NCBI GenBank assembly: GCA_900752975.1
Contig: CAADXH010000018.1
Location: 46,904 to 110,903, forward strand
Length of the DNA stretch: 64,000 nucleotides
Reading direction: 5' to 3'
Source of the DNA: Bacilli bacterium
GTDB taxonomy: Bacteria; Bacillota_I; Bacilli_A; ML615J-28; CAG-313
Both the position numbers and the translations under genes were made by a program. The notes under the pieces were generated by a model. It worked only from the letters and a program-made list of their open reading frames with translations. It was not told where the DNA came from and searched no databases. Positions within the stretch are counted from its first letter, which is position 1. Every line of letters starts with the position of its first letter. This document shows positions 434 through 54,565 of this stretch, piece by piece.

Positions 434-439
434 TGAATT

Positions 440-470
440 GGAGAGTAGTGTAATGCTACTCTCCGTTTGT
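440..470 (+). terminator. rho-independent terminator (ggagagtag/ctactctcc stem followed by a T-rich tract)
   Basis: The inverted repeat is read directly. It lies just downstream of the stop at 433. Confidence 0.55.
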
Positions 471-496
471 ATTTTGTCTAAGTTCCGAATTTCACA

Positions 497-569
497 TATA
501 TATTATAATAGTGATAGATAGGATACAGAAAACTGTTATAAAGAAATCGTCCTATCATCGGAGGTAGTT
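497..569 (+). promoter_or_regulatory. conserved ~70-bp promoter and 5' leader cassette (ATATATTATAATAGTGATAGATAGGATACAGAAA...CGGAGG), copy 1
   Basis: It is nearly identical to the reverse complement of 21202..21273. It contains a TATAAT element and an RBS, and lies immediately upstream of the ATG at 570. Confidence 0.6.
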
Positions 570-989
570 ATGTTGTTTACCACTTACATTACAAAGGCAG
601 AATTCGACGCATACGACACAGCATCAAAGAAAGACCAACCAAATATCTTTCATGTTATTACAGACAAGAAAGGAAAAAAATATTTGGTTTGTCATGGAGA
701 CAAAGATATGAAAATGCTCTATAACAACTACAGTTATTATACACCAGATGAAGTCTATGAAAAGGCTATCAGAAAAGGTCTGATAAAAGACGGTGAAAAA
801 ATTAATATTTGTTGTTGTTATGGTGGTTTAATGTCCAAACCGACCAACAAAAATATTACAATTTTAAACACAGAAAAAATCCCACTCTTTATTGAACGTC
901 ATAAGACAAGCAATGGTGATGCAAAACTTGTCATGTTTACAAAAAATAATTTACTAACTAGATTCTGTGCAGCAGTTGCAATGTTCTAA
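570..989 (+). CDS. hypothetical protein; distant third member of the paralog family formed with 20096..20644 and 20674..21201
   Basis: RBS GGAGG. It shares the VC(H/K)G...(I/V)P(L/I)F(I/F) motifs and the conserved leader with paralog A. Confidence 0.55.
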   Translation: MLFTTYITKAEFDAYDTASKKDQPNIFHVITDKKGKKYLVCHGDKDMKMLYNNYSYYTPDEVYEKAIRKGLIKDGEKINICCCYGGLMSKPTNKNITILNTEKIPLFIERHKTSNGDAKLVMFTKNNLLTRFCAAVAMF

Positions 990-996
990 AGAAATA

Positions 997-1028
997 GAAA
1001 CGTATCTTAATGATGCGTTTCTTTTTTG
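997..1028 (+). terminator. rho-independent terminator
   Basis: An 11-bp stem (agaaacgtatc/gatgcgtttct) is followed by TTTTTT. Confidence 0.55.
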
Positions 1029-1071
1029 TCTTACCTGTTCAACTTTAATATAATGAGAGGAGATGATATGA

Positions 1072-2268
1072 ATGGCTAGTGGAAATAATAATATGAATAT
1101 TACATCTGTTATTGATAAAGAGATTTTACCGATTGTTACTAATACTTTATCGAAATCGCTTACGAAATATAAATCTATGATGAGTAAGTTTATGAACAAT
1201 CGTTCTACATCTTTCTATGATACCTTCCCTGCAACTCGTTGTACTTATGGGCAACAAGATGCAGATGAATTGTATGCTGTTTTTGGAAAGTCAGAAAAGG
1301 AACTACAAGAGATTATTAATAAAACTTATTATGCTCAGATTCCTAATTTCAATCCTAGAACTGCAAAGAGTCCAGTAACAGTATTGTCTATTTGTATCAT
1401 TAAGTATTTCCTAACTAAGAATGATAAAAAGAATCTTGACTTAGCGATTATCTATATGTCTTTTTCTGGAGGATTTTATCCTTCTATTCATTATGGCTCT
1501 TATCCTGCTGCTGTACCAGCTGATTATAGATGGGTATGTGATTATGTTGTAAACAACGAATTGTCTAATAAGTTTGATTTGAAGAAAACTGGTTCAGTTG
1601 TTGGAACAATTCAATCTATTGGTAATACTTGGGCAGATGCATATAAGGATAGATTAAAAGGTAAAACTGATGATGAAGAGTATGTATATGTAATCCAACA
1701 GTTGCATATGCGTATTAAATCATTTATTCAGAATACTGCTGAAATATATTATAAGTGTTATCAAAATCGTGAATATCTTACTTATGATAGTGATGATTTA
1801 TCTCAGGATAGTTTTAGAATTACAGAAAACGATAGTACTAAAATTGAAGCAGTTACAGGACGAACAATGACATGGATTACAACACATGATATTGATTATC
1901 GTTTATGCAAGATGTGCTCTGATTCTAATGTAAAGACAGAAGAAATCAAAGCTATCATAGAATCTATTGTAAAGAATACAGATAACATCGATACAGTTAG
2001 AGAGTTGGTATCATTGATTGTTACCAATTATTTTAAGGCTAGTAAAACAAAAGATGTAAGAGATATTGAGTTTATTTCTTTTTCTGTTAAGGCTAAACCA
2101 AATACAAAAGATAAAGATGTATTAAGACAAAACGAAATTGTAGATAAGTTCTTATGTGAGAATAGTATTGCTTATAATCGACGTAAGAGTCGTGAAGCTA
2201 CGAAAAACAGCTATAATCGTGCAATACTTACATATTTTGTATTACTAATTAATCAAGCAAATAAGTAA
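1072..2268 (+). CDS. hypothetical protein (398 aa)
   Basis: Long ORF that heads a three-gene plus-strand block. No motif recognised. Confidence 0.55.
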   Translation: MASGNNNMNITSVIDKEILPIVTNTLSKSLTKYKSMMSKFMNNRSTSFYDTFPATRCTYGQQDADELYAVFGKSEKELQEIINKTYYAQIPNFNPRTAKSPVTVLSICIIKYFLTKNDKKNLDLAIIYMSFSGGFYPSIHYGSYPAAVPADYRWVCDYVVNNELSNKFDLKKTGSVVGTIQSIGNTWADAYKDRLKGKTDDEEYVYVIQQLHMRIKSFIQNTAEIYYKCYQNREYLTYDSDDLSQDSFRITENDSTKIEAVTGRTMTWITTHDIDYRLCKMCSDSNVKTEEIKAIIESIVKNTDNIDTVRELVSLIVTNYFKASKTKDVRDIEFISFSVKAKPNTKDKDVLRQNEIVDKFLCENSIAYNRRKSREATKNSYNRAILTYFVLLINQANK

Positions 2269-2283
2269 AGGGAGGATAGTTAA

Positions 2284-3654
2284 ATGTCGATATTTTGTAA
2301 TGAACATAGTATAGAATCTTATCAAGACAGACAACTTCAGCAAGCAATTAATGAAGCTTATTTCGGACGTAATGCTGGCATTACAAAAGTATATAATGCT
2401 TATTGTGATTGGAGAGAACCACTCATTTCTAAGAGTAAGTATTTCACTGCTACTATTAAGAATGTATATAATGAAGATATGAAATACTTTAGAAAATGTG
2501 TATGTGAACAATTTGGATTTGAAACTTTCTCTTATACTGTTGTCCAATCTGCAACAATAAATTCATTTACAATTACTGAATTCATTCCAACAAGAAATAA
2601 AAATAAATTAGAAATCACTAAAAATGGATATAAGTTTAAAGATGGTTCTAATGTTAATGCTATTGTCGCAGTGTATTCAGATTTAGTATTTAATCCTTAT
2701 TATACGAATGAAGAAAACTTTGCAATATTTCTTCACGAAATAGGACATAATTTTCAAACAGCAGTAAACAAGACAGTATTTTCTTTAACTGCTGCTACTG
2801 GATTGTTTTATGTATTAATTGATTTAATGAGATACGGTCCTATAGAACCAATTGCAAATCTTTTAGTTTCCTCAGATAATACTAAGAAAGTAATAAATAA
2901 TGTATTGAATGACTTATTAGATAATAAAGCAATGCAATGTATTTATACAGTAACCAGTATGTTACTATATGTGGGCACATCTATTAAAAATATTGTACTT
3001 GATATTATACAAATTACAGGTAGACCGGTTGCATTAATTATTGGTGCTTTATATAATTTACTTCCATTTTTATTGGAATTAATAACAGGTAGTCATCTTA
3101 AAAGTTATTATGGTGAAAGATTTGCCGATGGTTTTGCAGCTTCTTATGGATTTGGAGAAGCATTAGCATCTGGTCTAAAAAAGTTTGATGGAATGAATTA
3201 TGCAAGATCTCAAATTATGTCTGATGATATTATGCGTACTCCAATTATTGGTCATCTTTATGTATTAGCTTGTATGCCTGGATTAATGCTTTGGTCTATT
3301 ATTGACTGTCATCCATCTACTGAAGATAGATGCAAGAGTATTATAAAAGACTTAAGATATGACTTGAATGACCCATCTACACCACCTGCACTTAAGAAAC
3401 AACTAGAAAAAGAAATTGACGATTATGAAGCTGCTATGTCAGAATATTTTAAAGAAACAAAGAAGTTTTATAAACCTTCAGCTATTCCGGCTGTAATGCA
3501 GGAATTGATTTACAATAAATTAGGCGGTAGTGCTAAACTTAAGATGTCTGAATTACCATATATGATGAAAGGTGGTTTCAGATCATCCAACTATAATAAC
3601 AATCAAGAATTGAAAGAAGGGTACAACTTTATTTCAAATACTGAAATTGTTTAA
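2284..3654 (+). CDS. putative membrane-associated zinc metallopeptidase (HEIGH motif)
   Basis: RBS GGGAGG. It has the HExxH motif FLHEIGHNF followed by several long hydrophobic segments. Confidence 0.45.
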   Translation: MSIFCNEHSIESYQDRQLQQAINEAYFGRNAGITKVYNAYCDWREPLISKSKYFTATIKNVYNEDMKYFRKCVCEQFGFETFSYTVVQSATINSFTITEFIPTRNKNKLEITKNGYKFKDGSNVNAIVAVYSDLVFNPYYTNEENFAIFLHEIGHNFQTAVNKTVFSLTAATGLFYVLIDLMRYGPIEPIANLLVSSDNTKKVINNVLNDLLDNKAMQCIYTVTSMLLYVGTSIKNIVLDIIQITGRPVALIIGALYNLLPFLLELITGSHLKSYYGERFADGFAASYGFGEALASGLKKFDGMNYARSQIMSDDIMRTPIIGHLYVLACMPGLMLWSIIDCHPSTEDRCKSIIKDLRYDLNDPSTPPALKKQLEKEIDDYEAAMSEYFKETKKFYKPSAIPAVMQELIYNKLGGSAKLKMSELPYMMKGGFRSSNYNNNQELKEGYNFISNTEIV

Positions 3655-3668
3655 GGAGGGTTAATAAC

Positions 3669-4529
3669 ATGTGGAATGATTTATTTTTTCTAAATGAATC
3701 TGATGATGACGAAGAAAAGAAGAAGAATGATGAAAAAAAGGATGAAGAAGAAAAAGAAGATAAGAAGGAAGAAGAGAAATCTGAAAAGAAAAAAGATAAA
3801 GATGATGACGACAGTAGTGATGACTTTAATGACCTGAATCTAATGGGTAATGATGACGATATTGAATCTGATGTTGATGATACAGACTCAGAAATGAATG
3901 ATTTAGGACTTGGTGGTGACGACTCGTCTACAACTGATGATATTACTGATAATGATTCGGACTTTAATGCTCTTCTTGTTGTAGGAGATAGTGATAGTTC
4001 CGATAGCTGTTGCGGTGGAGAAGACCCTGTATATGAAAAAGCTTTAAAATGTGCATATGCCACTACAATATTTATGATGAATCTTAAGTATATTGGTATT
4101 AATGCTGTTGGTGAAAGATTGGAAGAAATCAGACGTAAGTGTACTGATTGGTACTATTCTATTGAAGGCTTCTCTTCTACATTATATTCATATGCTTCCG
4201 AATCTATGTCAATTGATATTGACAATCCGATTCGTGCAAAAGAACATTGTGAGGGTATGACAATTGCTGATGAAAAACAATATGATTATTTTGATGCTTT
4301 GAAAATGATTGATACAAATATTGGTGAATTGTTACAATATCTCAAATGTTTATCTGGAATGTCTGACAGAAAAGATATTACTGATAGTTGTAATTTAATT
4401 ATCGGAAATCTTGAGAAAGAATCTAGATGTACAATTAAGAGAGTTCTTTGTGGTAAATCATCTTCTTGTTTCGAAGATGAAAATAAAGTTGCTACAACAG
4501 AAGGATATAATTTTAATCGTTTGTTTTAA
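3669..4529 (+). CDS. highly acidic, disordered D/E/K-rich protein with a Cys-rich C-terminal domain
   Basis: RBS GGAGGG. The N-terminal ~110 aa are almost entirely D/E/K/S low complexity; the C-terminal ~170 aa are globular. Confidence 0.6.
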   Translation: MWNDLFFLNESDDDEEKKKNDEKKDEEEKEDKKEEEKSEKKKDKDDDDSSDDFNDLNLMGNDDDIESDVDDTDSEMNDLGLGGDDSSTTDDITDNDSDFNALLVVGDSDSSDSCCGGEDPVYEKALKCAYATTIFMMNLKYIGINAVGERLEEIRRKCTDWYYSIEGFSSTLYSYASESMSIDIDNPIRAKEHCEGMTIADEKQYDYFDALKMIDTNIGELLQYLKCLSGMSDRKDITDSCNLIIGNLEKESRCTIKRVLCGKSSSCFEDENKVATTEGYNFNRLF

Positions 4530-6198: not shown

Positions 6199-6261
6199 GC
6201 TTCATACGATTAAATACTATAACATGTAATTACCTTAGGGAGGAGAACCCCTGGTTGGGAT

Positions 6262-6337
6262 AACTGGATTTGAACCAGTGGAATGACGGAGTCAAAGTCC
6301 GTTGCCTTACCGCTTGGCTATATCCCATCATTTATTT
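6262..6337 (-). tRNA. tRNA-Gln (anticodon UUG), 76 nt with encoded CCA
   Basis: Folded by hand: 7-bp acceptor stem, TTCAAAT T-loop on a 5-bp stem, and anticodon stem ACGGA/TCCGT with loop CTTTGAC. The D-stem is only 3 bp. Confidence 0.7.
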
Positions 6338-20033: not shown

Positions 20034-20075
20034 AATAACAAAAAATAAAGGAGGTGAATTACTCACCCCCTTTCT
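20034..20075. terminator. bidirectional hairpin terminator
   Basis: aaaggaggtga/tcaccccctttc stem flanked by an A-run and a T-run. Confidence 0.5.
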
Positions 20076-20095: not shown

Positions 20096-20644
20096 TCACT
20101 TAAAGACTTTTTGAATATATACATGTCTATACATGGATTCAAGAACACGCTTGGTAGTTTTAACCATAACAAAACGTTTGGTAGTTTTATCCATAACAGA
20201 ATAACTCTCAAAATCAACCAATGCTCTTGCGTCAACATATCCTTCTTTCAGCAATCTAGTGATCTGAGTATAGAAAATGTCATGTTGACTTTTTTCTAAG
20301 ACAAAGAATATAGGAACATCGCTTGTTGTCAATTCATTATACTCCAGTAGTTTTTCGATTATTTTAACGCATTTTTGAATATTACAAACATCAAAATTAC
20401 GAACAATAATGCAAGTTTTAACCGTTCCTTTACAAGCCCAAACAATATCTCCATGGGTTATAGAAAGACTACGAATGAATTCTTTGCTATTTATTGTAGT
20501 ATCAATAAGATCAAGCTCAAACATGAATTTTCTATCTTTCTTATCTTGTTCGGACAAGAAGAATTTGCAATTCAAAATTCCTTCATTAACAAACTTTACT
20601 TCAATGAGAGTTCCATTAAAAATACTGTTAAATACATCTTTCAT
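20096..20644 (-). CDS. hypothetical protein, paralog B of the tandem pair (start moved to MKDVF)
   Basis: Its RBS context aatcGGAGGtatattATG is identical to paralog A. The ORF-track N-terminus MGIFLAE... is translated leader. Confidence 0.6.
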   Translation of the reverse strand: MKDVFNSIFNGTLIEVKFVNEGILNCKFFLSEQDKKDRKFMFELDLIDTTINSKEFIRSLSITHGDIVWACKGTVKTCIIVRNFDVCNIQKCVKIIEKLLEYNELTTSDVPIFFVLEKSQHDIFYTQITRLLKEGYVDARALVDFESYSVMDKTTKRFVMVKTTKRVLESMYRHVYIQKVFK

Positions 20645-20673
20645 AATATACCTCCGATTACTTTGAGTTCTTT

Positions 20674-21201
20674 TCAGTTTCTTGCTTCTGCCAAAAAGAT
20701 TCCCGTACTCTGCCAAAAAGATTCCCATACTTCGTATTTAGTTTTTAACATGGATTTATATATCTCATTTTTAGCCTTAAGCAGAACTTTATTATTTTCT
20801 AGCTGAACCAAGGTGTTCGCTTCAAGATACCCATTCATGAGTAACAAAATATCCCATTCAAATGACAAGTTAAGCAACCCAGTGTCGAATATGAAGAATA
20901 TTGGGACATCATCCATATTCTCATCTTTCACATATTGTTCAAGACTTTTAACACTCCCTACAATATCATTATTATCCCAGTCAAAAACAACTATGCAATT
21001 GTCAACAATACCCTTACAAACTTCATATACTTCTCCACGAATTATAGCGAGCTTCTGGATAAATTCTTCATCATCTTTTGTGATGTCGATAACCTCAAAT
21101 TTGACAAATCTGTATCCTTCATCAAATTCTTCTGGTGTTGGTTCGATAACGTAATCAAGAATTCCATCACATAAAGCTTTCTCTGTTTTTACATTTTTCA
21201 T
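20674..21201 (-). CDS. hypothetical protein, paralog A of the tandem pair
   Basis: Clear similarity to B (CKG(I/T)V..C(I/V)V, DVPIFF(I/V)). RBS GGAGG. Confidence 0.6.
   Translation of the reverse strand: MKNVKTEKALCDGILDYVIEPTPEEFDEGYRFVKFEVIDITKDDEEFIQKLAIIRGEVYEVCKGIVDNCIVVFDWDNNDIVGSVKSLEQYVKDENMDDVPIFFIFDTGLLNLSFEWDILLLMNGYLEANTLVQLENNKVLLKAKNEIYKSMLKTKYEVWESFWQSTGIFLAEARN
20688..20726 (-). repeat. tandem direct repeat: 2 x 17 nt (CTGCCAAAAAGATTCCC) with 22-nt periodicity
   Basis: Read directly. It lies in the last ~17 codons of paralog A, which also form the 5' leader of paralog B. The two copies are read in different frames (WESFWQ and GIFLAE). Confidence 0.7.
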
Positions 21202-21273
21202 AATATACCTCCGATTATAGGACGAGTTCTTTATAACAGATTTCTGTATCCTATTATCACTATTATAATATAT
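21202..21273 (-). promoter_or_regulatory. conserved ~70-bp promoter and 5' leader cassette, copy 2 (reverse complement of 497..569)
   Basis: About 90% identical to copy 1 over ~70 nt, including the TATAATAGTGATA box and the RBS. Confidence 0.6.
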
Positions 21274-21278
21274 AAATA

Positions 21279-22400
21279 TTATAAAGTTTCTGATAATATT
21301 TTTATCAGTTCGTCTGATGTTATAAACTCTTCTCCTTTATTCTGGTTTACATACTTAGCAAAGATTTCATATTCAGATAAGTTATTGTCGAAGATATAAT
21401 CATACTGAGCAAACTTATCATTTGTCTTCTGATTCTCTTTCATCGATTCAATGAAACCAGAATCCTGTACGTCAATAATTATATTCTGTCCTTTTGTACT
21501 GAAGTATTGTTTAACTGCATCTGTTGAAGTTGTAGCATTTCGAAATCTTATCTTCAAATAATCAATACCAGAATTCTTTAGTTGAATGATATAGTTTATG
21601 ATTTCCTTTACATCACAATCTACCATATTATCTAAGTTTATTGTATCGTATCGAAAAGATTTGATTGGTTGAAACTGTACAGAATATTGATGAGTCGGTA
21701 CATCGTATAAACAGATAAGAAAACCTTTTTCTTGTTCTTCTCCAAATCTCCATCTTAATGGACTACCAGAATAATAAATATGGTTTTGGTAACATCCTTG
21801 TACATGAACATGTCCACATAAGATAGGACCATTACAACGAGCAAAACTGTTAATATCGAATACTGGGCTTTTAACTGTATCTAAATCTTCTCTATCTAAT
21901 CCATAGATTGCACCTTTGATATTACCATGAAGAACAGCCATATCATAGTCCTGAGTATAATATAGCAATTGTTCATAATACTCTCTACCTTTGTTATATT
22001 CTTCTGGAATGCATAAAACCTTTGTTCCTTTGATGTCTTGAAACTGCATATTCTCTACAATTCTTATATCTACTCCAGAGTTTATATATCGATAGAATAG
22101 TTTCAATTGGTCTGCATCATGTGAAAAAGTACCATGTAATAATACAAGTGTAGCATTATTTTGAATACAAAGCTTTACAATTTCATCTACAAATAGTAAG
22201 GCATACATAATAACATCTGAGTTTGACATAAACTTATGATGGAACAAATCTCCATTAATAAAGAATGCATCGAAATGAATCTTTCTAACTTCATTTATCA
22301 TTTGTTCCATTAATATATCATATTGTAGTTTTGGATCCATTGCTCCAAAATGAATATCTGCTGTATGAATCTCAACTAACGTCCTATTATAGTATTGCAT
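21279..22400 (-). CDS. SbcD/Mre11-like metallophosphoesterase nuclease
   Basis: Calcineurin-fold motifs HTADIHFG, NGDLFHH, LLHGTFSHD, AVLHGN and CGHVHV. Confidence 0.75.
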   Translation of the reverse strand: MQYYNRTLVEIHTADIHFGAMDPKLQYDILMEQMINEVRKIHFDAFFINGDLFHHKFMSNSDVIMYALLFVDEIVKLCIQNNATLVLLHGTFSHDADQLKLFYRYINSGVDIRIVENMQFQDIKGTKVLCIPEEYNKGREYYEQLLYYTQDYDMAVLHGNIKGAIYGLDREDLDTVKSPVFDINSFARCNGPILCGHVHVQGCYQNHIYYSGSPLRWRFGEEQEKGFLICLYDVPTHQYSVQFQPIKSFRYDTINLDNMVDCDVKEIINYIIQLKNSGIDYLKIRFRNATTSTDAVKQYFSTKGQNIIIDVQDSGFIESMKENQKTNDKFAQYDYIFDNNLSEYEIFAKYVNQNKGEEFITSDELIKILSETL

Positions 22401-22554: not shown

Positions 22555-23790
22555 ATGAATACAACAGCAAACAGAAACACAGCAACCACACGGGAAATCA
22601 CTACTATCTTCGACAAAGCTATTAGCTTTGATAAGGTAGAGCCTTGCATTCTCTACTTAGCCGAAAGTGTAAACGGCAAGCAGGGAATTTTCTTGAAGCT
22701 GGAACATTCCAATGGAAACATTTTCGGAGCAATCAGAAAAGTTAATCCCAAAAGAAAAGTGAAGGCTGGAAGCAACAAGATTATCTTTAAGTATTATGGG
22801 CAAACTTATAGCTTGTTCTTAAATGAAGTAATGCTTATTGATGGCCGCACATCAAGACTGTTTAAAATGTACAATTTTCGTCTTCATTTCGAAGATGCTG
22901 ACAGGATTTATGACGGTTTGTGCAAGCATTTCAAAGCGTTAAATGCAGCCAATCAAGTAAAAGAACAGGAAGAGAAACCACAGACGAATCAGACTGTAGC
23001 ACCAATTGATAAGGAATTGTTTGACAATTTGATGGGTATGGCTATTAGTCAGACAGGTTTGACAGAAGCTGAAGTTACTGAGTATGTTGACTATGTTACT
23101 CGGTATATTCAGAATAAGAGAGAAGAGATGAACGATCTTAAAGAACAGATTCAGGAAATTTCCGAAGATATCTCTTCCAAATCTTCAGAGTTTGTTTTGG
23201 AAATTCAGAAGCGGAAAGAAATAGCTGAAAAGAGAAGAGCAGAAGAAGCTCGTAAAGCTGCTGAGGAAAAAGCAAAGAAGAAGCAGGAAGAAATTAACTC
23301 TGTAAGAGAATTTCTCTCTGGAGCTTCAGATGATATGATTCAGTATCTGAAAGCACAGCTTGGTGTTGAAGAAACTAAAAAATCTGATGAAGAATCTGAT
23401 TCACTGAAAGGTGATATCAATATGAAGGTTAGAGTTGTTCCTTCTAATAATGATGACTCTTGGAATTTCTTTGCAAAACACGTTAGAGAAATTTGTGATC
23501 GTTCATCGTTACCAAATAAAGAAATTCTTGAAAGACTCGTGAAGAAATCTGACGGCATGACCCTTAAAGAAATTGCCGATGCGATGGGGTTTAACTCCAG
23601 CGGAAGAATCGTAAGAATAAATGATCTTCTCAGAAAAATGAAATTTGACAAGATCTTAGGAACCAGAGTTCGTAAATCTGGTTATAAGATAGCCACTAAT
23701 AAAGAAAGTCGTGCCAATGGTGGCGTAACAAGAAAAATTAATTGTGAAATTTATAATGAATTGGCATCTGAATCTGAATATATCAAATAA
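22555..23790 (+). CDS. coiled-coil protein with a C-terminal winged-helix DNA-binding domain (start moved to MNTTAN)
   Basis: GGAGG lies 9 nt upstream of the ATG at 22555. There is a charged helical stretch EKRRAEEARKAAEEKAKKK, and a C-terminal region LKEIADAMGF...VRKSGYKIA that looks like a wHTH. Confidence 0.55.
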   Translation: MNTTANRNTATTREITTIFDKAISFDKVEPCILYLAESVNGKQGIFLKLEHSNGNIFGAIRKVNPKRKVKAGSNKIIFKYYGQTYSLFLNEVMLIDGRTSRLFKMYNFRLHFEDADRIYDGLCKHFKALNAANQVKEQEEKPQTNQTVAPIDKELFDNLMGMAISQTGLTEAEVTEYVDYVTRYIQNKREEMNDLKEQIQEISEDISSKSSEFVLEIQKRKEIAEKRRAEEARKAAEEKAKKKQEEINSVREFLSGASDDMIQYLKAQLGVEETKKSDEESDSLKGDINMKVRVVPSNNDDSWNFFAKHVREICDRSSLPNKEILERLVKKSDGMTLKEIADAMGFNSSGRIVRINDLLRKMKFDKILGTRVRKSGYKIATNKESRANGGVTRKINCEIYNELASESEYIK

Positions 23791-23907: not shown

Positions 23908-24723
23908 ATGGATAACTACTTACTATTTGAGTCAGGTATAGATTATAACAGAGTGTTTGCTCATCGAGGTGATATATTTATCTGCGAAGGATTATTCAAA
24001 CCTATGTCTGATATCGAGGAAAATGACCATATAATAGCAAAACCGAATAGACCGGTTTTAATTATTTCTGATGACATACATAATGCTGATATTGTGAAAG
24101 TGTTACCGTTCTCTACAAAAGCTGGTTCACTTGATCAAGAGTCTATTACTTCTGGGAGAGTAATTAAAGTCCCTGGCATTAAAAGTGACACAAACTCTAA
24201 TTACATCGATGTATCTCAGATATTTACGATTAATGTATATCAATTGAAATATAAGTTAGGACATGCTTCTCAAGAAATTGTAGATGCAGCAGTAGCATTA
24301 CATACACTACAAAACGTTGCTAATGCTACATCTATTAATACGATTGTCAAAATTTTTAAAGAGAAATTTCCGAATGCTCCTATTTTTAATCAGTTAAATA
24401 CAATCACTACAAATAGCTATGCAAATGGTCAAACAATATTTGTGAATAATATGTATGATCCTTCAGTCGATTTGTTCTCAGAGGTTAAACAAGTTACATA
24501 TGAAGAACTAATGGCTGAGAATGCAGCTAAGCCAGTATTAATGAATCCTGAAACAAAAGAACAAGCATACGAAATTTACCAAAAATGGCTATCTATGGGA
24601 ACAGATCTATTTAGAGCAAAATATGGTTTAACAAAACAACAATATATTACTTTGCGAGATAGGTGTGTTTGTAAGATGCTTGGAAAAATTGCAAACTTTA
24701 AGAAACATGATTGGAGTGCATAA
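23908..24723 (+). CDS. MazF/PemK-like endoribonuclease domain (N-terminal ~125 aa) fused to a ~150-aa C-terminal domain of unknown function
   Basis: HRGDIFICEGLFKPMSDIEENDHIIAKPNRPVLIISDDIHNADIVKVLPFSTKAG aligns with PemK/MazF/EndoA (RGD(I/V)(Y/W)..L.P..G.EQ...RPVL(V/I)(I/V)S.D......VV(V/L)P.TS). AGGAGG lies 8 nt upstream of the ATG at 23908. Confidence 0.65.
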   Translation: MDNYLLFESGIDYNRVFAHRGDIFICEGLFKPMSDIEENDHIIAKPNRPVLIISDDIHNADIVKVLPFSTKAGSLDQESITSGRVIKVPGIKSDTNSNYIDVSQIFTINVYQLKYKLGHASQEIVDAAVALHTLQNVANATSINTIVKIFKEKFPNAPIFNQLNTITTNSYANGQTIFVNNMYDPSVDLFSEVKQVTYEELMAENAAKPVLMNPETKEQAYEIYQKWLSMGTDLFRAKYGLTKQQYITLRDRCVCKMLGKIANFKKHDWSA

Positions 24724-25226: not shown

Positions 25227-25337
25227 TAGTTTTCCTTTAAAACCGATAAAAGAATACTGTCCGTCGTTAGATGGGCAGTTTCTTTTTTGTCGTATAGCTC
25301 GAACTTTATTATAAATGACTATAAAGGAGGAATCGTT

Positions 25338-30861: not shown

Positions 30862-32661
30862 ATGCAAATGTTATATTGTGGTCTTACTGATTTTAGTACA
30901 GTTGTAAGAAATGACCCTCAGATTACGATATATGGCGATGAATCCAATTCTACTATAAGAAAAAACTTCATAGAAAATCTTGCTAAATGTTTAAACTCAT
31001 TATCAATAATTGAATTAAAAGAAATAACTGTTATTGAAGATTATGCATTATCCAATCTTCAAGTAAGCAAGTTTAAATTGATTCTTCCTGATACATTAAT
31101 AACAATTGGCAAGTATGCTTTTCAGAATTGTACAGCGATGAACGATATTGTAATTCCTGCTTCTGTAACTGAAATTGGTGAAGGTGCTTTTTATGGATGC
31201 AATTCTCTTAATAATATTTATTTTAAAGAAGATACTAAGATCACTTATATTCCAGAATTGTTCTGTTCTGGTGGTGGACTTAACACAGTTGGTATCGAAT
31301 ATAAAAACGGAACAAGAACTGTTCATGATACAATAGAATTTCCAAAATCAATTACTAAAATTAATAACAATGCTTTTTATAATTGTGGTTCTATGGGTCA
31401 TACTTGTATTATTGGAGATAATATAACAACAATTGGCGACTATGCCTTTTACGGTACTACGATTGATGTATTTAAAATAGGTACTGGTATTAACACAGGT
31501 TCTGACCAAAAGACAGAAGATTTTAATGATGGTAATTATGATACAGATAGAGATATTAAAACTCCATATGTTTTATACCTATCTTCTAAACGTCAGTTCA
31601 GATATAAACATTTTGTCGCTGCAGAAGATATGGATGCTGGTACAATCTATTTACTAAATAAGAAAGAATATGAAGTACCGAATGAAAAGACATATGTATA
31701 TAAAACCGATGATGATGATTTTAAATTCTGTTTAAAGAATTCTCATTTGCTAATCTTTAAGAATGGTCTCCTCTTACCAAAATCATATTATTATCTCCAT
31801 TCTATTATCAATACTCCTATTACAGACGTTGGTGTTGTATTTAACGTATCAATTAAAACAGGAGATATTATTGATATCTTCTATGTTACTAACGACTTAT
31901 TCCATATAGATACAGAGTATTATGATGAGAAAACAAAAGAGCGTTATATCACAAATGGTGATATAGAATTGAGTAAGAATGAAGATGAATATAGAGTAAT
32001 GGGTAATGAACTTTATGAAAATAGTAATACACGAACAAACTATATTAAAATGCATTCTCCTTTATATGGTATTTCTAGTAAGCATTCAGTCTTTGTATTC
32101 TTAAACGGTAAGAAGATTAGATTAGATGAATTAGAAGATATATCTGATACGATTATGAGCATTAAAACAGATTACTCTGTATATAATCCAGAAATCAATG
32201 CAGGAATACTAGAAGTATTAAACCATCTAGATACACAAGATATCATTGAACAAGTGTATATTAATGATGGTTTACATCCTGATAATAATGAATCAGCAAA
32301 AAATCAATTTACTAGTACAACCAATCAGAATATCTTTAGAAATACAAGATTAGTAAGATCAATAGATTTAACAAAGTTAGAGTCATATGCTGAACGTACT
32401 TTGTTAGATAAAATATTAAATGATTTATCTGATGAGAATCTCAATAAATTATTCTATAATTATGACACAGCGAAAGGTCCAATGACTATGTATCGAAAAG
32501 CCAGTATTAATGAGCCAGATTTTATTAATAGAAATTCTGTAATCACGAGTATTGTAGATAAATACTATACAACAAACGGTACATCTTATATTGATGATAA
32601 AGCAGCACTATTTTCTACAGAATCTACAGATAAAGAAGTTATTGAAACAGATACAGAATAA
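30862..32661 (+). CDS. BspA-type leucine-rich-repeat protein, a candidate receptor-binding or adhesin protein
   Basis: Repeats such as IPASVTEIGEGAFYGCNSL, ITKINNNAFYNCGSM and IGDYAFYGT. RBS AGGAGG. Confidence 0.6.
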   Translation: MQMLYCGLTDFSTVVRNDPQITIYGDESNSTIRKNFIENLAKCLNSLSIIELKEITVIEDYALSNLQVSKFKLILPDTLITIGKYAFQNCTAMNDIVIPASVTEIGEGAFYGCNSLNNIYFKEDTKITYIPELFCSGGGLNTVGIEYKNGTRTVHDTIEFPKSITKINNNAFYNCGSMGHTCIIGDNITTIGDYAFYGTTIDVFKIGTGINTGSDQKTEDFNDGNYDTDRDIKTPYVLYLSSKRQFRYKHFVAAEDMDAGTIYLLNKKEYEVPNEKTYVYKTDDDDFKFCLKNSHLLIFKNGLLLPKSYYYLHSIINTPITDVGVVFNVSIKTGDIIDIFYVTNDLFHIDTEYYDEKTKERYITNGDIELSKNEDEYRVMGNELYENSNTRTNYIKMHSPLYGISSKHSVFVFLNGKKIRLDELEDISDTIMSIKTDYSVYNPEINAGILEVLNHLDTQDIIEQVYINDGLHPDNNESAKNQFTSTTNQNIFRNTRLVRSIDLTKLESYAERTLLDKILNDLSDENLNKLFYNYDTAKGPMTMYRKASINEPDFINRNSVITSIVDKYYTTNGTSYIDDKAALFSTESTDKEVIETDTE

Positions 32662-34542: not shown

Positions 34543-34604
34543 TAAGACTTTACCCTCCTTAAATAACAGCTATCATCTTTTATTATAAAGTTTTGACAAA
34601 AAAA

Positions 34605-34640: not shown

Positions 34641-34670
34641 CCAAAGTTATTTTAAGAACATAGTAAATTA

Positions 34671-39644: not shown

Positions 39645-41234
39645 ATGTCAGACGTATATTCAACATCGGAAAATTATGATTACTTGTATGAGAAATTGGA
39701 AGAATTCTATAATGTTTCTGTTACAGGTAACTACCCATTCAATATTCCATTGAATGAAAATGGACAACCTTTATACAGATTTGAATCTAGAATCGTTCCG
39801 ATCGATTTTGATAAGGAATGTGAAGATGATATTGTAAAAGGTACAGGGTTTTATATCGTAAAGAAGCAAAACATTAAGAAAGATATTCGTTCTATTGACA
39901 GTATCTTTTCTTCAAGATTTGGAATGCAGATTGATGATGTAACACCATTTGGGGACGTTTATAAATGTAAGTGTGGTAAAACAATGATGAAGGTAAACAA
40001 TGGTTTATTTTGTCCGTTTTGTCATACGAAAGTAAGATATGTTGCAAATGACTTTTCTATTACAGGATGGATAAAGATGAATGATTTCACTGTAATTCAT
40101 CCAAATATGTTTAAAAAGTTAGTAGCATTTATCGGAAAGAAAATCTTCGATGATATTATTAATGTAGAACCGAAGATTGATGAGGATGGTTTTGCAATTC
40201 CAAAAACACCGTCCAAATCAAATCCATTTTCTGGTATTGGGTTTATGGAATTAAGAGATAGATTTGATGAAGTAATGGAGTTCTATCGAAACAAATATAA
40301 GTCCAATACAAATAAGATGGCTTATTATGAGGATATTATGCAGAATAAGAATATTGTGTTTACACATTGTTTACCTGTATATACATCTCAGTTAAGACCA
40401 TTCTCTATTAAACAGAATAAGTTTAACTTTGAAGGAAATAATGCTTTGTATAATTTGATTGCTGGATTAGTAGCAAAATTAAACAAGCATGATATCTATT
40501 CTAGAAACCGTTCAAAGCCAACAAATCAGATTCTGTATGATATTCAAATGAAGTATATGGAAATTTATGCAGATTTGGAAAAAGTAATTGCACAGAAGAA
40601 AGGTTATACCCGTTCTTTAAACGGTGGACGTTATAACTTTACCGCAAGAAATGTAATTATTCCAGACCCAGATTTGAGAATTGATGAAGTCATTCTTCCA
40701 TATCCAACTTTGATTGAATTAATGAGTTTGACAATCATTAATGTTCTTACAAAAACCTATAGTCCTGCAGAGGCTTATCGCATTTGGGATGAAGCCCGTA
40801 TTGAGTATAATCCGATGATTGCTGATTTGATTCAGAATATCATTGATAATCAGTATGTCGGAATTATCTTAAATCGAAATCCTAGTATTTCTCCATCGTC
40901 TATTATTCAACTTCATGTAACTGGTGTAACAAAGAATGACACATATAGTTGTCATTTACCACATGAAATTCTTAAGTCGATGGGTGCAGACTTTGATGGT
41001 GATACTTTAAATATCACACTTATCATTAATGATGAATTCTTATTGAACGCTGCAAAACTATTTAATCCTAGACTTAGTATGCAGGTATCTTATAATGATG
41101 GTATGTTTAATAGTAAGATGTCATTACAAACTGACACAATGATTTGTATTAATTCATTTGCACAACTTGGAATCAATTCTATCACAGAAGAAGAATTACG
41201 ACTTATTGAAGTTTGTCAATCATATCAAGAATAA
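39645..41234 (+). CDS. multisubunit RNA polymerase beta-prime-like subunit, N-terminal portion (zinc ribbon plus catalytic DFDGD loop)
   Basis: CKCGK...GLFCPFCHTKV matches the beta-prime Zn ribbon (CLCGK...GVICEKCGVEV). SMGADFDGDTLNI matches the universal NADFDGD active site. The spacing between the two (~330 aa) fits beta-prime. Confidence 0.75.
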   Translation: MSDVYSTSENYDYLYEKLEEFYNVSVTGNYPFNIPLNENGQPLYRFESRIVPIDFDKECEDDIVKGTGFYIVKKQNIKKDIRSIDSIFSSRFGMQIDDVTPFGDVYKCKCGKTMMKVNNGLFCPFCHTKVRYVANDFSITGWIKMNDFTVIHPNMFKKLVAFIGKKIFDDIINVEPKIDEDGFAIPKTPSKSNPFSGIGFMELRDRFDEVMEFYRNKYKSNTNKMAYYEDIMQNKNIVFTHCLPVYTSQLRPFSIKQNKFNFEGNNALYNLIAGLVAKLNKHDIYSRNRSKPTNQILYDIQMKYMEIYADLEKVIAQKKGYTRSLNGGRYNFTARNVIIPDPDLRIDEVILPYPTLIELMSLTIINVLTKTYSPAEAYRIWDEARIEYNPMIADLIQNIIDNQYVGIILNRNPSISPSSIIQLHVTGVTKNDTYSCHLPHEILKSMGADFDGDTLNITLIINDEFLLNAAKLFNPRLSMQVSYNDGMFNSKMSLQTDTMICINSFAQLGINSITEEELRLIEVCQSYQE

Positions 41235-48724: not shown

Positions 48725-50395
48725 TTACTTAATATCAGAAACTTTTACCCATCCAGTAACATAATTACCAATTGGTGTTCTACCTACATTACTAGCAGAG
48801 TTTGTAATACGAATTTTACCATTTAATACTTCATTACTATAGATATAATAAGTACCAGATTTCTTGGAAGAATAATTAGATGTAGAAGCAGAAGCATATA
48901 ATGCCACGCTTCTCAATGTAATTCTATCACCAGCTTTTGGAGTTCCGGAAGAAGAGGACACAGTTGTTGTACCCTTTACCAAAGAAACATCAATCCACCC
49001 AGTAACATAATTACCGATTGGTGTTCTACCTACATTACTAATAGAATTTGTAATACGGATACGATTGCTAACTACTTCTGTACTATATACATAGAATGTA
49101 CCAGATTTTCTTATACCAGACTTTGCAGAAGCAGAAGCATATAGTGTAGCACCAGATAGAGTTACTTTTGCACCAGCTTTAATTGTTACAGGAGTAGATG
49201 GGGTTGTCGGCTTAGCTGGAGTTGTTGGGACAGCTTTATTTTTATATACATCATCTTTTGTTAGTCCATAATATTGATAGAAGTTAGATGTAACTGTGTT
49301 ATTGCTTACACATTCATCACCCTTCCAGATATTACTTGTTCTGCAATCTAGATGAATAGATGTATATGAAGATGTGATATTAGCAATACCACCAACACCC
49401 AAATCCTGTGCAGCACAAGAAACAAGCTTTGTAGAAATTGCCTTTTTATGTTTATCATATAATACAACATCTGCTGCATTACCAATACCATGCTGACCAA
49501 CGAATCCACCGATCTTCTTATCGTAATCTGGACAACGATATCCACTATTTACAATAATCATAGAGCATTCGAAAGTTTCAAATAGCTTTTCAAGAATATA
49601 TACAAGGTATAGGTTAATCTTAATTTCATGTGATTTACCACACTTACACTTAAATTCTTGAACATTGAAATGTTTGGAGATTTGTGTTCTATCACTTACA
49701 TTAAATGAAGTAACCTTATTCTCTGGTGCTTTATCTGTAGTAACAAGATAACCTGTTGGAGTTACCGGTTTAGATTCATTAACAGAACCGGTAAGATTAT
49801 TCAATCCAAGGGCTTTAATCTTTTCTGGATAATTATCTACATAGCAGTAATCAAGATCTACATTACCAGAAATACCAGCTACTCTACCAGTGGAAGAATA
49901 TTGCCACATTGTTTTTTGTGTCCATGGTGTAGAGCTAGCATAATGTGCTACTGCAATATCATACTTGCTATATACACTTGATGGAACATAGCTTTTTAGG
50001 AAAGAATAGTAGGAATAAATACCTGGATAATATCCAGCTGCTCTAATTGTATCACAGAACGCAGGGATGATGGCAGAGGCTACAGCAGTATTTGTTTGAG
50101 TAGAGTGTTCAATATCAAATAGAATTGGGTATTCAAACTTCTTACCTTTCAAACATTCAATACAAGCTTTTGCTTCTTGAATTGCTTCATCTTTTGTGGT
50201 TGCATAAGAGAACCAATAAGCACCCTTTGGAATATTATACTTTTCACAAGCAGCATAATATTCTTCAAATCTATCATCCTTCTGAGATACATGACGTCCA
50301 TAACCTGCTCTTAAAATAGCGAAATCAATTTCATCTTTTGTTTTAGACCAATCAATTGAACCTTGCCATACAGATACATCAATACCTTTAAGCAT
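48725..50395 (-). CDS. multidomain endolysin: GH25 muramidase + M15-family peptidase + 2 x SH3b-like wall-binding repeats
   Basis: GIDVSVWQGSIDW (GH25). SGYRCPDYDKKIGG...HGIGNAADV...HLD (M15/VanY-like). Two ~45-aa C-terminal repeats of the form GT(F/Y)Y(V/I)YS.EV...IRITNS.SNVGRTPIGNYVTGW. Confidence 0.85.
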   Translation of the reverse strand: MLKGIDVSVWQGSIDWSKTKDEIDFAILRAGYGRHVSQKDDRFEEYYAACEKYNIPKGAYWFSYATTKDEAIQEAKACIECLKGKKFEYPILFDIEHSTQTNTAVASAIIPAFCDTIRAAGYYPGIYSYYSFLKSYVPSSVYSKYDIAVAHYASSTPWTQKTMWQYSSTGRVAGISGNVDLDYCYVDNYPEKIKALGLNNLTGSVNESKPVTPTGYLVTTDKAPENKVTSFNVSDRTQISKHFNVQEFKCKCGKSHEIKINLYLVYILEKLFETFECSMIIVNSGYRCPDYDKKIGGFVGQHGIGNAADVVLYDKHKKAISTKLVSCAAQDLGVGGIANITSSYTSIHLDCRTSNIWKGDECVSNNTVTSNFYQYYGLTKDDVYKNKAVPTTPAKPTTPSTPVTIKAGAKVTLSGATLYASASAKSGIRKSGTFYVYSTEVVSNRIRITNSISNVGRTPIGNYVTGWIDVSLVKGTTTVSSSSGTPKAGDRITLRSVALYASASTSNYSSKKSGTYYIYSNEVLNGKIRITNSASNVGRTPIGNYVTGWVKVSDIK

Positions 50396-54484: not shown

Positions 54485-54526
54485 AAATCCTCCTTTTCTT
54501 GATTTTATAATAAAGTTCTTCTATTA

Positions 54527-54565
54527 AGACAAAAAAGAAAAGCGTACCCTCAAAGAGAGTACGCC
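54527..54565 (-). terminator. hairpin terminator
   Basis: gcgtaccctc/gagagtacgc stem followed on the minus strand by a T-run. Confidence 0.5.

Follow-up and report, generated by a model that had tools for sequence, protein, structure and literature searches.

A repeated promoter and folded-leader cassette of a jumbo-type phage that probably carries interchangeable early genes

In T4-type phages, promoter-early stem-loops (PeSLs) are mobile regulatory cassettes (Arbiol et al. 2010, PMC2839356; Comeau et al. 2014, PMC4122927), with their recombination located to the interval from the −10 element to the ATG (PMC2839356; PMC4122927). In the Bacillus jumbo phage AR9, differential RNA sequencing (dRNA-seq) and primer extension defined the early promoter of the virion RNA polymerase (RNAP) as AAATATATATTAT-(6N)-G+1, and the late promoter consensus is AACA-(6N)-TA/G (PMC5312081). 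Stem-loops at the 5' end of mRNAs are also known as stabilizers, PMC3997798 listing Escherichia coli ompA and papA, the Bacillus subtilis aprE leader, ermC and the 5' stabilizer of phage SP82, and stating that 5'-terminal helices block 5'-end-dependent decay in E. coli and B. subtilis. Here, we describe a repeated element of about 70 bp in a 64,000-nucleotide (nt) stretch of contig CAADXH010000018.1 (positions 46,904 to 110,903; hereafter, the window, meaning the whole stretch analyzed), which, judging by its genes, is part of a jumbo-type phage. The two copies of the element precede the genes at 570-989 (gene X) and 20674-21201 (paralog A), and we consider it reasonably probable that the element is a portable early-expression cassette of a jumbo phage with a multisubunit RNAP (msRNAP), in which a promoter, a 5' untranslated region (5'UTR) folded into a hairpin and an exposed ribosome-binding site (RBS) are joined and placed ahead of unrelated cargo.

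Global alignment of 497-572 on the plus strand with the reverse complement of 21199-21274 yielded 71 identical columns out of 77 (92.2%), compared with ~46% identity in the 60 nt flanking either side of both copies, which is the background for DNA with 30% G+C. The pair is the top inverted repeat of the window when the latter is compared with itself (49 nt at 94%, all other pairs being at 70-82%), and the 27-nt core of the leader occurs twice in the window, with no occurrence expected by chance. A preliminary description of this DNA had put the identity at about 90% and had seen a unit of box, leader and RBS ahead of two genes; both statements are borne out, as are its coordinates, with the similarity extending one base farther, to 21274, and the possibility it had allowed for, that of generic AT-rich sequence with less than 70% identity, does not apply. 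The copies differ by one 1-nt indel (G517), by substitutions at 532 (in the hairpin loop), 546 and 556, and by two changes in the spacer between the Shine-Dalgarno sequence (SD) and the ATG, both copies carrying GGAGG 5-7 nt upstream of the ATG. The DNA 17 nt upstream of the boxes is unrelated between the copies. The repeat thus reads as two joined parts, an early-promoter box and a folded 57-nt 5'UTR with its RBS, laid out as follows (TSS, transcription start site):

494..512, plus strand: early-promoter box of copy 1, ACATATATATTAT followed by AATAGT; matches the AR9-type virion-RNAP consensus and recurs in the window
513..569, plus strand: 5'UTR of copy 1, 57 nt, predicted TSS G513; defined from minimum free energy and ensemble folds, RNAalifold and pair counts, with a covariance model hit at 517-564 (76.3 bits)
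21259..21274, minus strand: early-promoter box of copy 2, TATATATTAT followed by AATAGT; directly after the stop codon of the phosphoesterase gene 21279-22400
21202..21258, minus strand: 5'UTR of copy 2 (type II allele), predicted TSS G21258; covariance model hit at 21255-21208 (74.9 bits), SD at 21212-21208

The box of copy 1 matches the AR9 early consensus at 12 of 13 positions and that of copy 2, ATTTATATATTAT, at 11 of 13, and in both copies a G lies exactly 6 nt past the box, after AATAGT. Rereading six of the promoters annotated as early in the AR9 record revealed the same box and spacing. A 20-nt version of the box, TATATATTATAATAGTGATA, has five matches in the window at no more than three mismatches, against 0.1 expected, and a looser search for TATATATTAT-N6-(G/A) retrieved 11 sites, all of which are intergenic, directed toward a gene and located 48-71 nt ahead of its start codon, with G at +1 in nine and A in two. 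The genes behind these sites include gyrA, a gene of the helicase region and several small open reading frames (ORFs).

513+, 9343-, 13503-, 15167-, 16967-, 21258-, 22484+, 24795+, 36778-, 39098+, 60229-: candidate (predicted) TSSs behind AR9-type early boxes, sign giving the strand
39645-41234, plus strand: RNAP beta'-like fragment, 529 amino acids (aa) (PF00623, E=7e-11; phrog_2987, E=9e-55)

A sigma-70 scan found no −35/−10 promoter at either box, and the TATAAT within the box was rejected as a sigma-70 promoter on this ground. An early promoter serving the virion RNAP of the phage itself, with predicted starts at G513 and G21258, is the most plausible reading of the box, which agrees with the AR9 consensus down to the G at +1 and shows no sigma-70 promoter, in a window that encodes an msRNAP fragment. 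The consensus match and the beta' fragment likewise lend support to the earlier proposal that the repeat drives 570-989 and 20674-21201, and by analogy with AR9, the genes behind the cassette are plausibly expressed early. The isolates nearest to the beta'-like protein in tblastn searches (~29-30% identity) are phiR1-37, the Bacillus jumbo phages BpSp and Goe21, and Staphylococcus jumbo phages. Its gene is preceded by a late-type motif, CAACTTTATAATAAAA, rather than by an early box, and the subunit is compatible with either the virion or the non-virion form of the enzyme. The window further encodes gyrase A and B, a divergent DnaB and a Pif1-like helicase; it has no near DNA match among GenBank phages, with only distant matches found at the protein level.

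In the predicted transcript of copy 1, three outer pairs (513-515/557-559, with A516 bulged) are followed by the helix P1 (517-524/549-556, GAUAGGAU/GUCCUAUC) and by an inner hairpin (525-528/533-536, ACAG-AAAA-CUGU, with the loop at 529-532). The two helices are separated by a one-sided internal loop of 12 nt (537-548, UAUAAAGAAAUC), which begins with an invariant, unpaired UAUAAAG, and the SD GGAGG (560-564) lies outside the helix. Single-sequence folds and the RNAalifold consensus agree on this structure, in which the first three nucleotides of the predicted transcripts are paired (probability of being unpaired, 0.03-0.04); P1 begins at +1 or +2, or is extended to +1, in all variants. From 10 distinct variants of the leader we built a covariance model, which recovers the two copies with the scores given above and gives the next best site of the window 13.6 bits; with its filters off it identified no further diverged leader copies in the window. 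An Rfam search found no family for the leader, the region 430-640 yielding noise hits only at E up to 10. One candidate function of the fold, an SD-sequestering switch, was rejected, as the UCCU of P1 can form only 3 bp with GGAGG and no alternative fold appeared.

Comparison of the variants gives some evidence that the helices are maintained as RNA. Paired combinations occupy 97.5% of the cells at the helical positions, compared with 31-59% in controls with slid partners. In the most divergent locus (L063), the inner stem is AUGG/CCAU instead of ACAG/CUGU, which amounts to two compensatory pairs, with P1 and UAUAAAG unchanged; the closing pair alternates between G-C, G-U and A-U, and U524-G549 becomes U-A in another locus (L007). 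Double changes are found in three of the 12 pairs, two of these from L063 alone, and eight of the 12 never vary. A U-G wobble is present in P1 in nine of the 10 variants, and because wobble pairing is possible on the sense strand only, these pairs favor an RNA helix over an operator in duplex DNA.

The hairpin at the start of the transcript appears to be a wider feature of this phage. In 10-11 of the 11 predicted early transcripts of the window, with leaders of 48-71 nt, a hairpin starts at +1 or +2, against ~1.5 of 11 (at most 5 in 300 sets) in dinucleotide shuffles and random intergenic sets; the test used a 36-nt window, which cuts off the long P1 of the X leader, itself paired from +1. One of these early-transcript hairpins covaries between lineages, and the other early leaders of the window carry hairpins different from that of the cassette. 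The six AR9 early leaders that we read are short and unstructured, with no +1 hairpin, and AR9 was accordingly rejected as a source of the rule. A hairpin at +1 may be, as far as these predictions go, a clade-specific rule for virion-RNAP transcripts.

To place the cassette among related phages, we collected relatives through pattern scans of IMG/VR and of metagenome contigs and through contigs encoding homologs of X or A. Six of the 16 metagenome hits (L054, L056, L058, L059, L065 and L066), lacking both box and SD, were random matches, and the loci L011-L047 were disregarded for the same reason, namely, as random pattern matches. There remained 26 further cassette copies in related contigs of up to 212-219 kb, with 1-3 copies per related genome; complete relatives of this size include IMGVR_UViG_3300045988_128423, ERZ1026858 NODE_1 and ERZ773224 NODE_18. 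A scan of bacterial and archaeal genomes with the leader pattern produced no hits; accordingly, nothing in these data suggests that the element came from a host or has a copy in a prophage. The ORFs behind the cassette belong to family X (139 aa), family A/B (161-182 aa), family C (68-73 aa, helical) and a family of 66-89 aa ending in ...KL(F/V)(L)GY, with one other ORF in L063. With at least four unrelated families of small ORFs behind the same sequence, the cassette appears as the conserved mobile unit and the genes as interchangeable cargo. The preliminary description had it the other way around, in that members of one gene family were thought to have kept identical expression signals.

Several configurations among the relatives document the exchange. 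One relative (L005) is 99% identical to positions 1-574 of the window and 98% identical to 981-3936, and the ORF between is an X allele with 38% protein identity, so that the swap is bounded by the ATG (574) and the stop codon (981). In seven relatives (L001, L003, L006, L010, L057, L060 and L062), a module C of ~310 bp is present, consisting of a terminator hairpin, an early box, the cassette leader and the 68-73 aa helical ORF, and the corresponding site of the window is empty. In the A slot, the gene directly behind the leader is A, a 45% variant of A or a B-like gene, with one or two paralogs depending on the genome; in L064, for instance, a B-like gene comes right after the full leader. 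In the window itself, a remnant of the leader, its 3' half, extends over the A-B intergenic region and the final codons of A (20645-20690, minus strand); having lost the 5' strand of the helices, it looks like the product of a tandem duplication of leader plus gene.

34642..34656, minus strand: empty site for module C, a clean indel relative to the relatives
20645..20673, minus strand: A-B intergenic region with RBS; relic of the leader 3' half, AAAGAACTC...TAATCGGAGGTATATTATG

Four of the differences between the two window copies behave as two alleles, types I and II. In the close clade, the leader of the A slot is of type II and that of the C slot of type I, and the copy-1 slot carries either type, depending on the genome, with all four combinations with the two X alleles represented. 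This free combination of leader and X alleles indicates ectopic recombination or gene conversion within the cassette. The cassette also occurs in loci with no other detectable DNA or protein similarity to the window (L007, L008 and L063).

In L048 (3421-3700) and at the 3' end of L069, an extra early-type promoter, TATATAATTATAGTG, with its own hairpin is found between X and the homolog of gene 1072-2268, and the copy-1 region hence appears to be a hot spot for early modules. The L048 insert, located just after the X terminator, also carries a 124-aa ORF. A separate hypervariable slot lies at 22555-23790 on the plus strand, a 411-aa ORF without a family match that has its own early-type promoter (TSS 22484); its product is 67-70% identical in L004 and L064, the neighboring genes being 96-100% identical, and no counterpart was detected in those stretches of the L051/L053 lineage that were compared for synteny.

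The cargo of the two window copies comprises three proteins:

570..989, plus strand: gene X, an ORFan of 139 aa in which the motifs CHG and CCCYGG are invariant; occupies the copy-1 slot as hypervariable cargo
20674..21201, minus strand: paralog A, 175 aa, predicted (by structure prediction) to have a GNAT/antizyme-like fold
20096..20644, minus strand: paralog B, 182 aa, encoded behind A in the same transcription unit and recognized by BLASTP against A

These had been taken for a single family of three paralogs. A and B are indeed paralogs (BLASTP E=1e-20), whereas X is unrelated to them, with BLASTP E values of 0.09 and 0.36, an hhalign probability of 0.1% and a different predicted fold: in the AlphaFold (AF2) models (predicted local distance difference test, pLDDT, of 76 for X and 87 for A), X has no fold match and does not share the fold of A/B, for which the predicted structure shows the alpha/beta fold of GNAT proteins. 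The statement that none of the proteins has a recognizable fold consequently stands at the sequence level, where searches of Pfam, PHROGs and PADLOC with X, A, B, C and the 66-89 aa family returned no significant hit (the match of the 66-aa protein to Sigma70_r4_2, at E=0.058, is not significant), and fails for A at the level of predicted structure. No Pfam GNAT hit was obtained for A/B, the acetyl-CoA motif Q/R-x-x-G-x-G/A was not found after strand 4, and the loop after strand 68-75, as assigned by eye (DNNDIVGS in A, DVCNIQKC in B), is not conserved in the family alignment. Given the missing motif and the variable loop, A and B may be non-catalytic, antizyme-like binders, if the models are correct. 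Family X comprises four clusters among 5.8 billion sequences, and a profile search with family A/B recovered 23 cluster representatives among 1.84 billion, the longer members being without a Pfam domain.

Taken together, these observations can be arranged into a scheme in which the injected virion RNAP would initiate at G513 and G21258 early in infection, as the consensus match suggests; the 5'-terminal helix would guard the transcript end against 5'-end-dependent decay; the self-contained fold would keep the RBS unpaired with whichever ORF sits downstream; and the ~70 bp of identity would serve as a handle for homologous recombination, allowing small accessory ORFs to be exchanged, gained, lost or duplicated in tandem and keeping the copies homogeneous. 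The last step is what the comparison with relatives shows, as far as sequences can tell, and the putative functions of the leader would be 5'-end protection, RBS insulation and possibly a site for a specific factor.

Several points weigh against this scheme. The TSSs, the early timing and the promoter strength are taken over from AR9, and the RNAP subunit of the window is only ~30% identical; the AR9 early leaders, furthermore, do without +1 hairpins. The covariation comes from one divergent sequence (L063) and one polymorphic closing pair. At its peak, the leader is 0.88-0.93 identical to a lineage with 77% identity, a level not exceptional for this genome, since well-conserved coding sequence reaches it too and a second early leader is ~88% conserved. 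In copy 1, the predicted SD accessibility is only 0.43, through pairing with the coding start of X. Finally, a generic protective hairpin needs neither an invariant UAUAAAG nor a P1 of fixed sequence.

Because UAUAAAG and the P1 sequence are invariant, stabilization and insulation alone do not explain the conservation of the leader, and a specific reader of these elements, probably a protein, suggests itself; that such a reader is the main reason for the conservation seems to us possible, if rather doubtful. In its fuller form, this alternative holds that the leader is mainly a specific cis-regulatory RNA, i.e., an operator for an RNA-binding protein, such as a RegA-like repressor or a timing or localizing factor, or, less likely, a small riboswitch, with a regulon of 1-3 genes per genome, and that selection for shared control, and not just recombination, brought it to unrelated genes. 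The unpaired UUAUAAAG and the P1 sequence are invariant across all 10 distinct variants, even L063, in which the adjacent stem covaries; variation is confined to the hairpin loop, four positions of the internal loop and the SD spacer; the core is identical at 37 of 39 positions to that of a lineage with ~77% identity of syntenic DNA and 55-59% identity of protein A; and the different hairpins of the other early leaders make this one specific to a few genes. This view has to contend with the failure to match Rfam even at the most permissive E value, with the small size of the element and an RBS that is free in both folded states, leaving no evident switch, and with the fact that no candidate binding protein was identified. 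Moreover, gene conversion alone can keep copies alike in a close clade, and the independent events are few. On balance, we treat it as a tentative alternative. Unlikely, in our estimate, is the bolder proposition that the two-tier 5' hairpin with UAUAAAG is a previously undescribed cis-regulatory RNA motif of msRNAP jumbo phages, through which a dedicated factor of phage or host origin would govern how stable a few hypervariable early mRNAs are, when they are translated or how they are handled, the +1-hairpin rule being then a requirement of the transcription/translation system rather than generic stabilization.

The inverted repeats could, in principle, act at the level of DNA, either as the operator of a dimeric regulator just past the start site or as a recombinase site, akin to integron attC, that moves ORF cassettes. 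ACAG-N4-CTGT is a perfect palindrome and ATAGGA...TCCTAT a second one, together spanning +5 to +44, the cassette borders are the break points of ORF replacement and indel, and the PeSL study itself considered that its stem-loops might contain a target for a protein (PMC2839356). A base-specific operator would not, however, tolerate the palindrome of L063, which changes in sequence yet still pairs, and the U-G wobbles of P1 amount to A-C mismatches on the other strand, pointing to a helix in the sense-strand RNA. The 12-nt asymmetric loop is, in addition, conserved on one side only, and the scanned proteins of the window include no integrase or recombinase. We consider a DNA-level role very unlikely. 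A recent neutral duplication by illegitimate recombination, with similarity that has not yet decayed, might account for a short element with only two, 92% identical copies in the window, but is contradicted by the comparative data (the cassette occupies the same two loci and a third one in many related genomes as well as loci otherwise dissimilar to the window, its core is nearly invariant in the lineages diverged to the extent given above, and compensatory changes keep the structure) and is highly improbable.

Under the favored reading of a portable expression unit, the borders of the modules deserve attention. Copy 1 is preceded by an intrinsic terminator, and the same order of hairpin and then box is found ahead of the module-C copies in the relatives. 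At the other end of the X module, a terminator is fused to a late-type promoter, an arrangement that forms both the 3' border of X and the promoter of gene 1072-2268. It belongs to a second repeated composite of the window, in which the T-run TTTTTTGTC is followed after 2-14 nt by AACTTTAT(A/T)ATAA, that is, AACT-N6-TA. This motif precedes genes of structural type and resembles the AR9 late promoter AACA-N6-TA/G, used by the non-virion RNAP, of which it may be the counterpart.

439..474, plus strand: intrinsic terminator with a 12-bp stem (hairpin 439-465) and a T-run; predicted to close the upstream gene and insulate copy 1
996..1052, plus strand: terminator (996-1022 plus T-run) fused to the late-type promoter AACT-N6-TA (1041-1052); identified by terminator scan, repeats D4/I3/I4 and the AR9 late consensus
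20047..20073, minus strand: intrinsic terminator ending the A-B unit, from the terminator scan
1015-1053; 25278-25314; 54504-54543 (reverse complement); ~34556-34590 (reverse complement); also upstream of 39645 and 61044: late-type composite sites

Some other features of the window were recorded. A gene for tRNA-Gln (UUG) at 6252-6327 (minus strand, 66 bits), located between a 144-aa and a 256-aa ORF, is the sole hit of the window to Rfam 15 at the gathering threshold. The 271-aa protein encoded at 23908-24723 (plus strand) has a PemK/MazF-like toxin domain at its N-terminus (PF02452, E=1e-7), and its gene lies beside the phosphoesterase gene, an arrangement kept in the 77%-identity lineage. 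The idea that this PemK-domain neighbor cleaves the leader at UACA, in the manner of MazF/PemK, was rejected, since UACA is absent in L063. The 599-aa protein of 30862-32661 (plus strand) contains BspA-type leucine-rich repeats (PF13306, E=5e-26), and its gene adjoins a 1524-aa ORF without a family match. Finally, a 126-nt direct repeat (48737-48862 and 48983-49108, 79% identity, 246-nt spacing) within the gene for a 556-aa endolysin (GH25 plus peptidase M15) probably encodes repeated cell-wall-binding modules. This type of endolysin and the strong GGAGG sites point to a Firmicute as host, the samples behind the sequences being gut metagenomes.

Only a few isolates of RNAP-carrying jumbo phages have been studied, and expression signals have been worked out for AR9, phiKZ and a small number of others. 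The window provides sequence-level evidence that the AR9-type grammar of early and late promoters reaches an uncultured gut clade with a ~30%-identical RNAP subunit, and it offers a compact example of how interchangeable accessory genes are plugged into an early program, with the cassette marking hot spots at which ORFs are swapped, duplicated and lost. Gene X, the GNAT/antizyme-like A and B, the 68-73 aa family C and the 66-89 aa family are candidates for host-takeover or anti-defense screens, and the insulated unit of promoter, 5'UTR and RBS could serve the engineering of such phages. No major concept is changed by these results, and the leader is a small RNA motif with a putative function.

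Comparison with described systems places the cassette between several of them. Its early promoter resembles those of the AR9/phiKZ group in the extended AT-rich box ...ATATATATTAT, the 6-nt spacer and the G at +1 (PMC5312081), and the phage is similar to AR9 also in encoding split msRNAP subunits and in its second motif, where AACT/AACA-N6-TA mirrors the late promoter; unlike in AR9, the spacer is conserved (AATAGT), the RNAP subunit shares only ~30% identity with its counterparts in the AR9/PBS1 group, and the predicted early transcripts start with a hairpin, in contrast to the six short, unstructured AR9 early leaders that we read. As in the known 5' stabilizers, a helix lies within 1-2 nt of the (predicted) 5' end and is followed by a strong RBS, but those elements need structure and not a fixed sequence, whereas here an invariant heptamer and P1 are common to unrelated genes. 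Like phage morons, X and module C are autonomous terminator-promoter-ORF-terminator units between conserved genes; morons, however, share no common flanking cassette. The short 5' RNA sequence shared by a subset of early mRNAs recalls the targets of T4 RegA, although RegA sites are unstructured and overlap the start codon, and no RegA homolog or other binding protein was identified here.

The closest likeness is to PeSLs, which are likewise composites of ~70-100 bp of an early promoter, a stem-loop and an SD, repeated between genes and tied to small ORFans, and in which the break points of indels and replacements between close relatives fall within the cassette. The differences are nevertheless substantial. 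The PeSL promoter has sigma-70-like −35/−10 elements for the host RNAP, and the box found here is of the AR9 type, with no −35; PeSL stem-loops are terminators or attenuators in varied positions, and here the hairpin forms the 5' end of the mRNA, lies past +1 without a T-run and is conserved in sequence, with separate terminators at 439-465 and 996-1022; and PeSLs are present in dozens of copies, compared with 1-3 per genome for the present cassette. Given that neither a sigma-70-type promoter nor a terminating stem-loop is found, the cassette does not appear to be a member of the PeSLs, nor does it amount to a categorically new system; judged on these shared and divergent features, PeSLs are its closest evolutionary analog.

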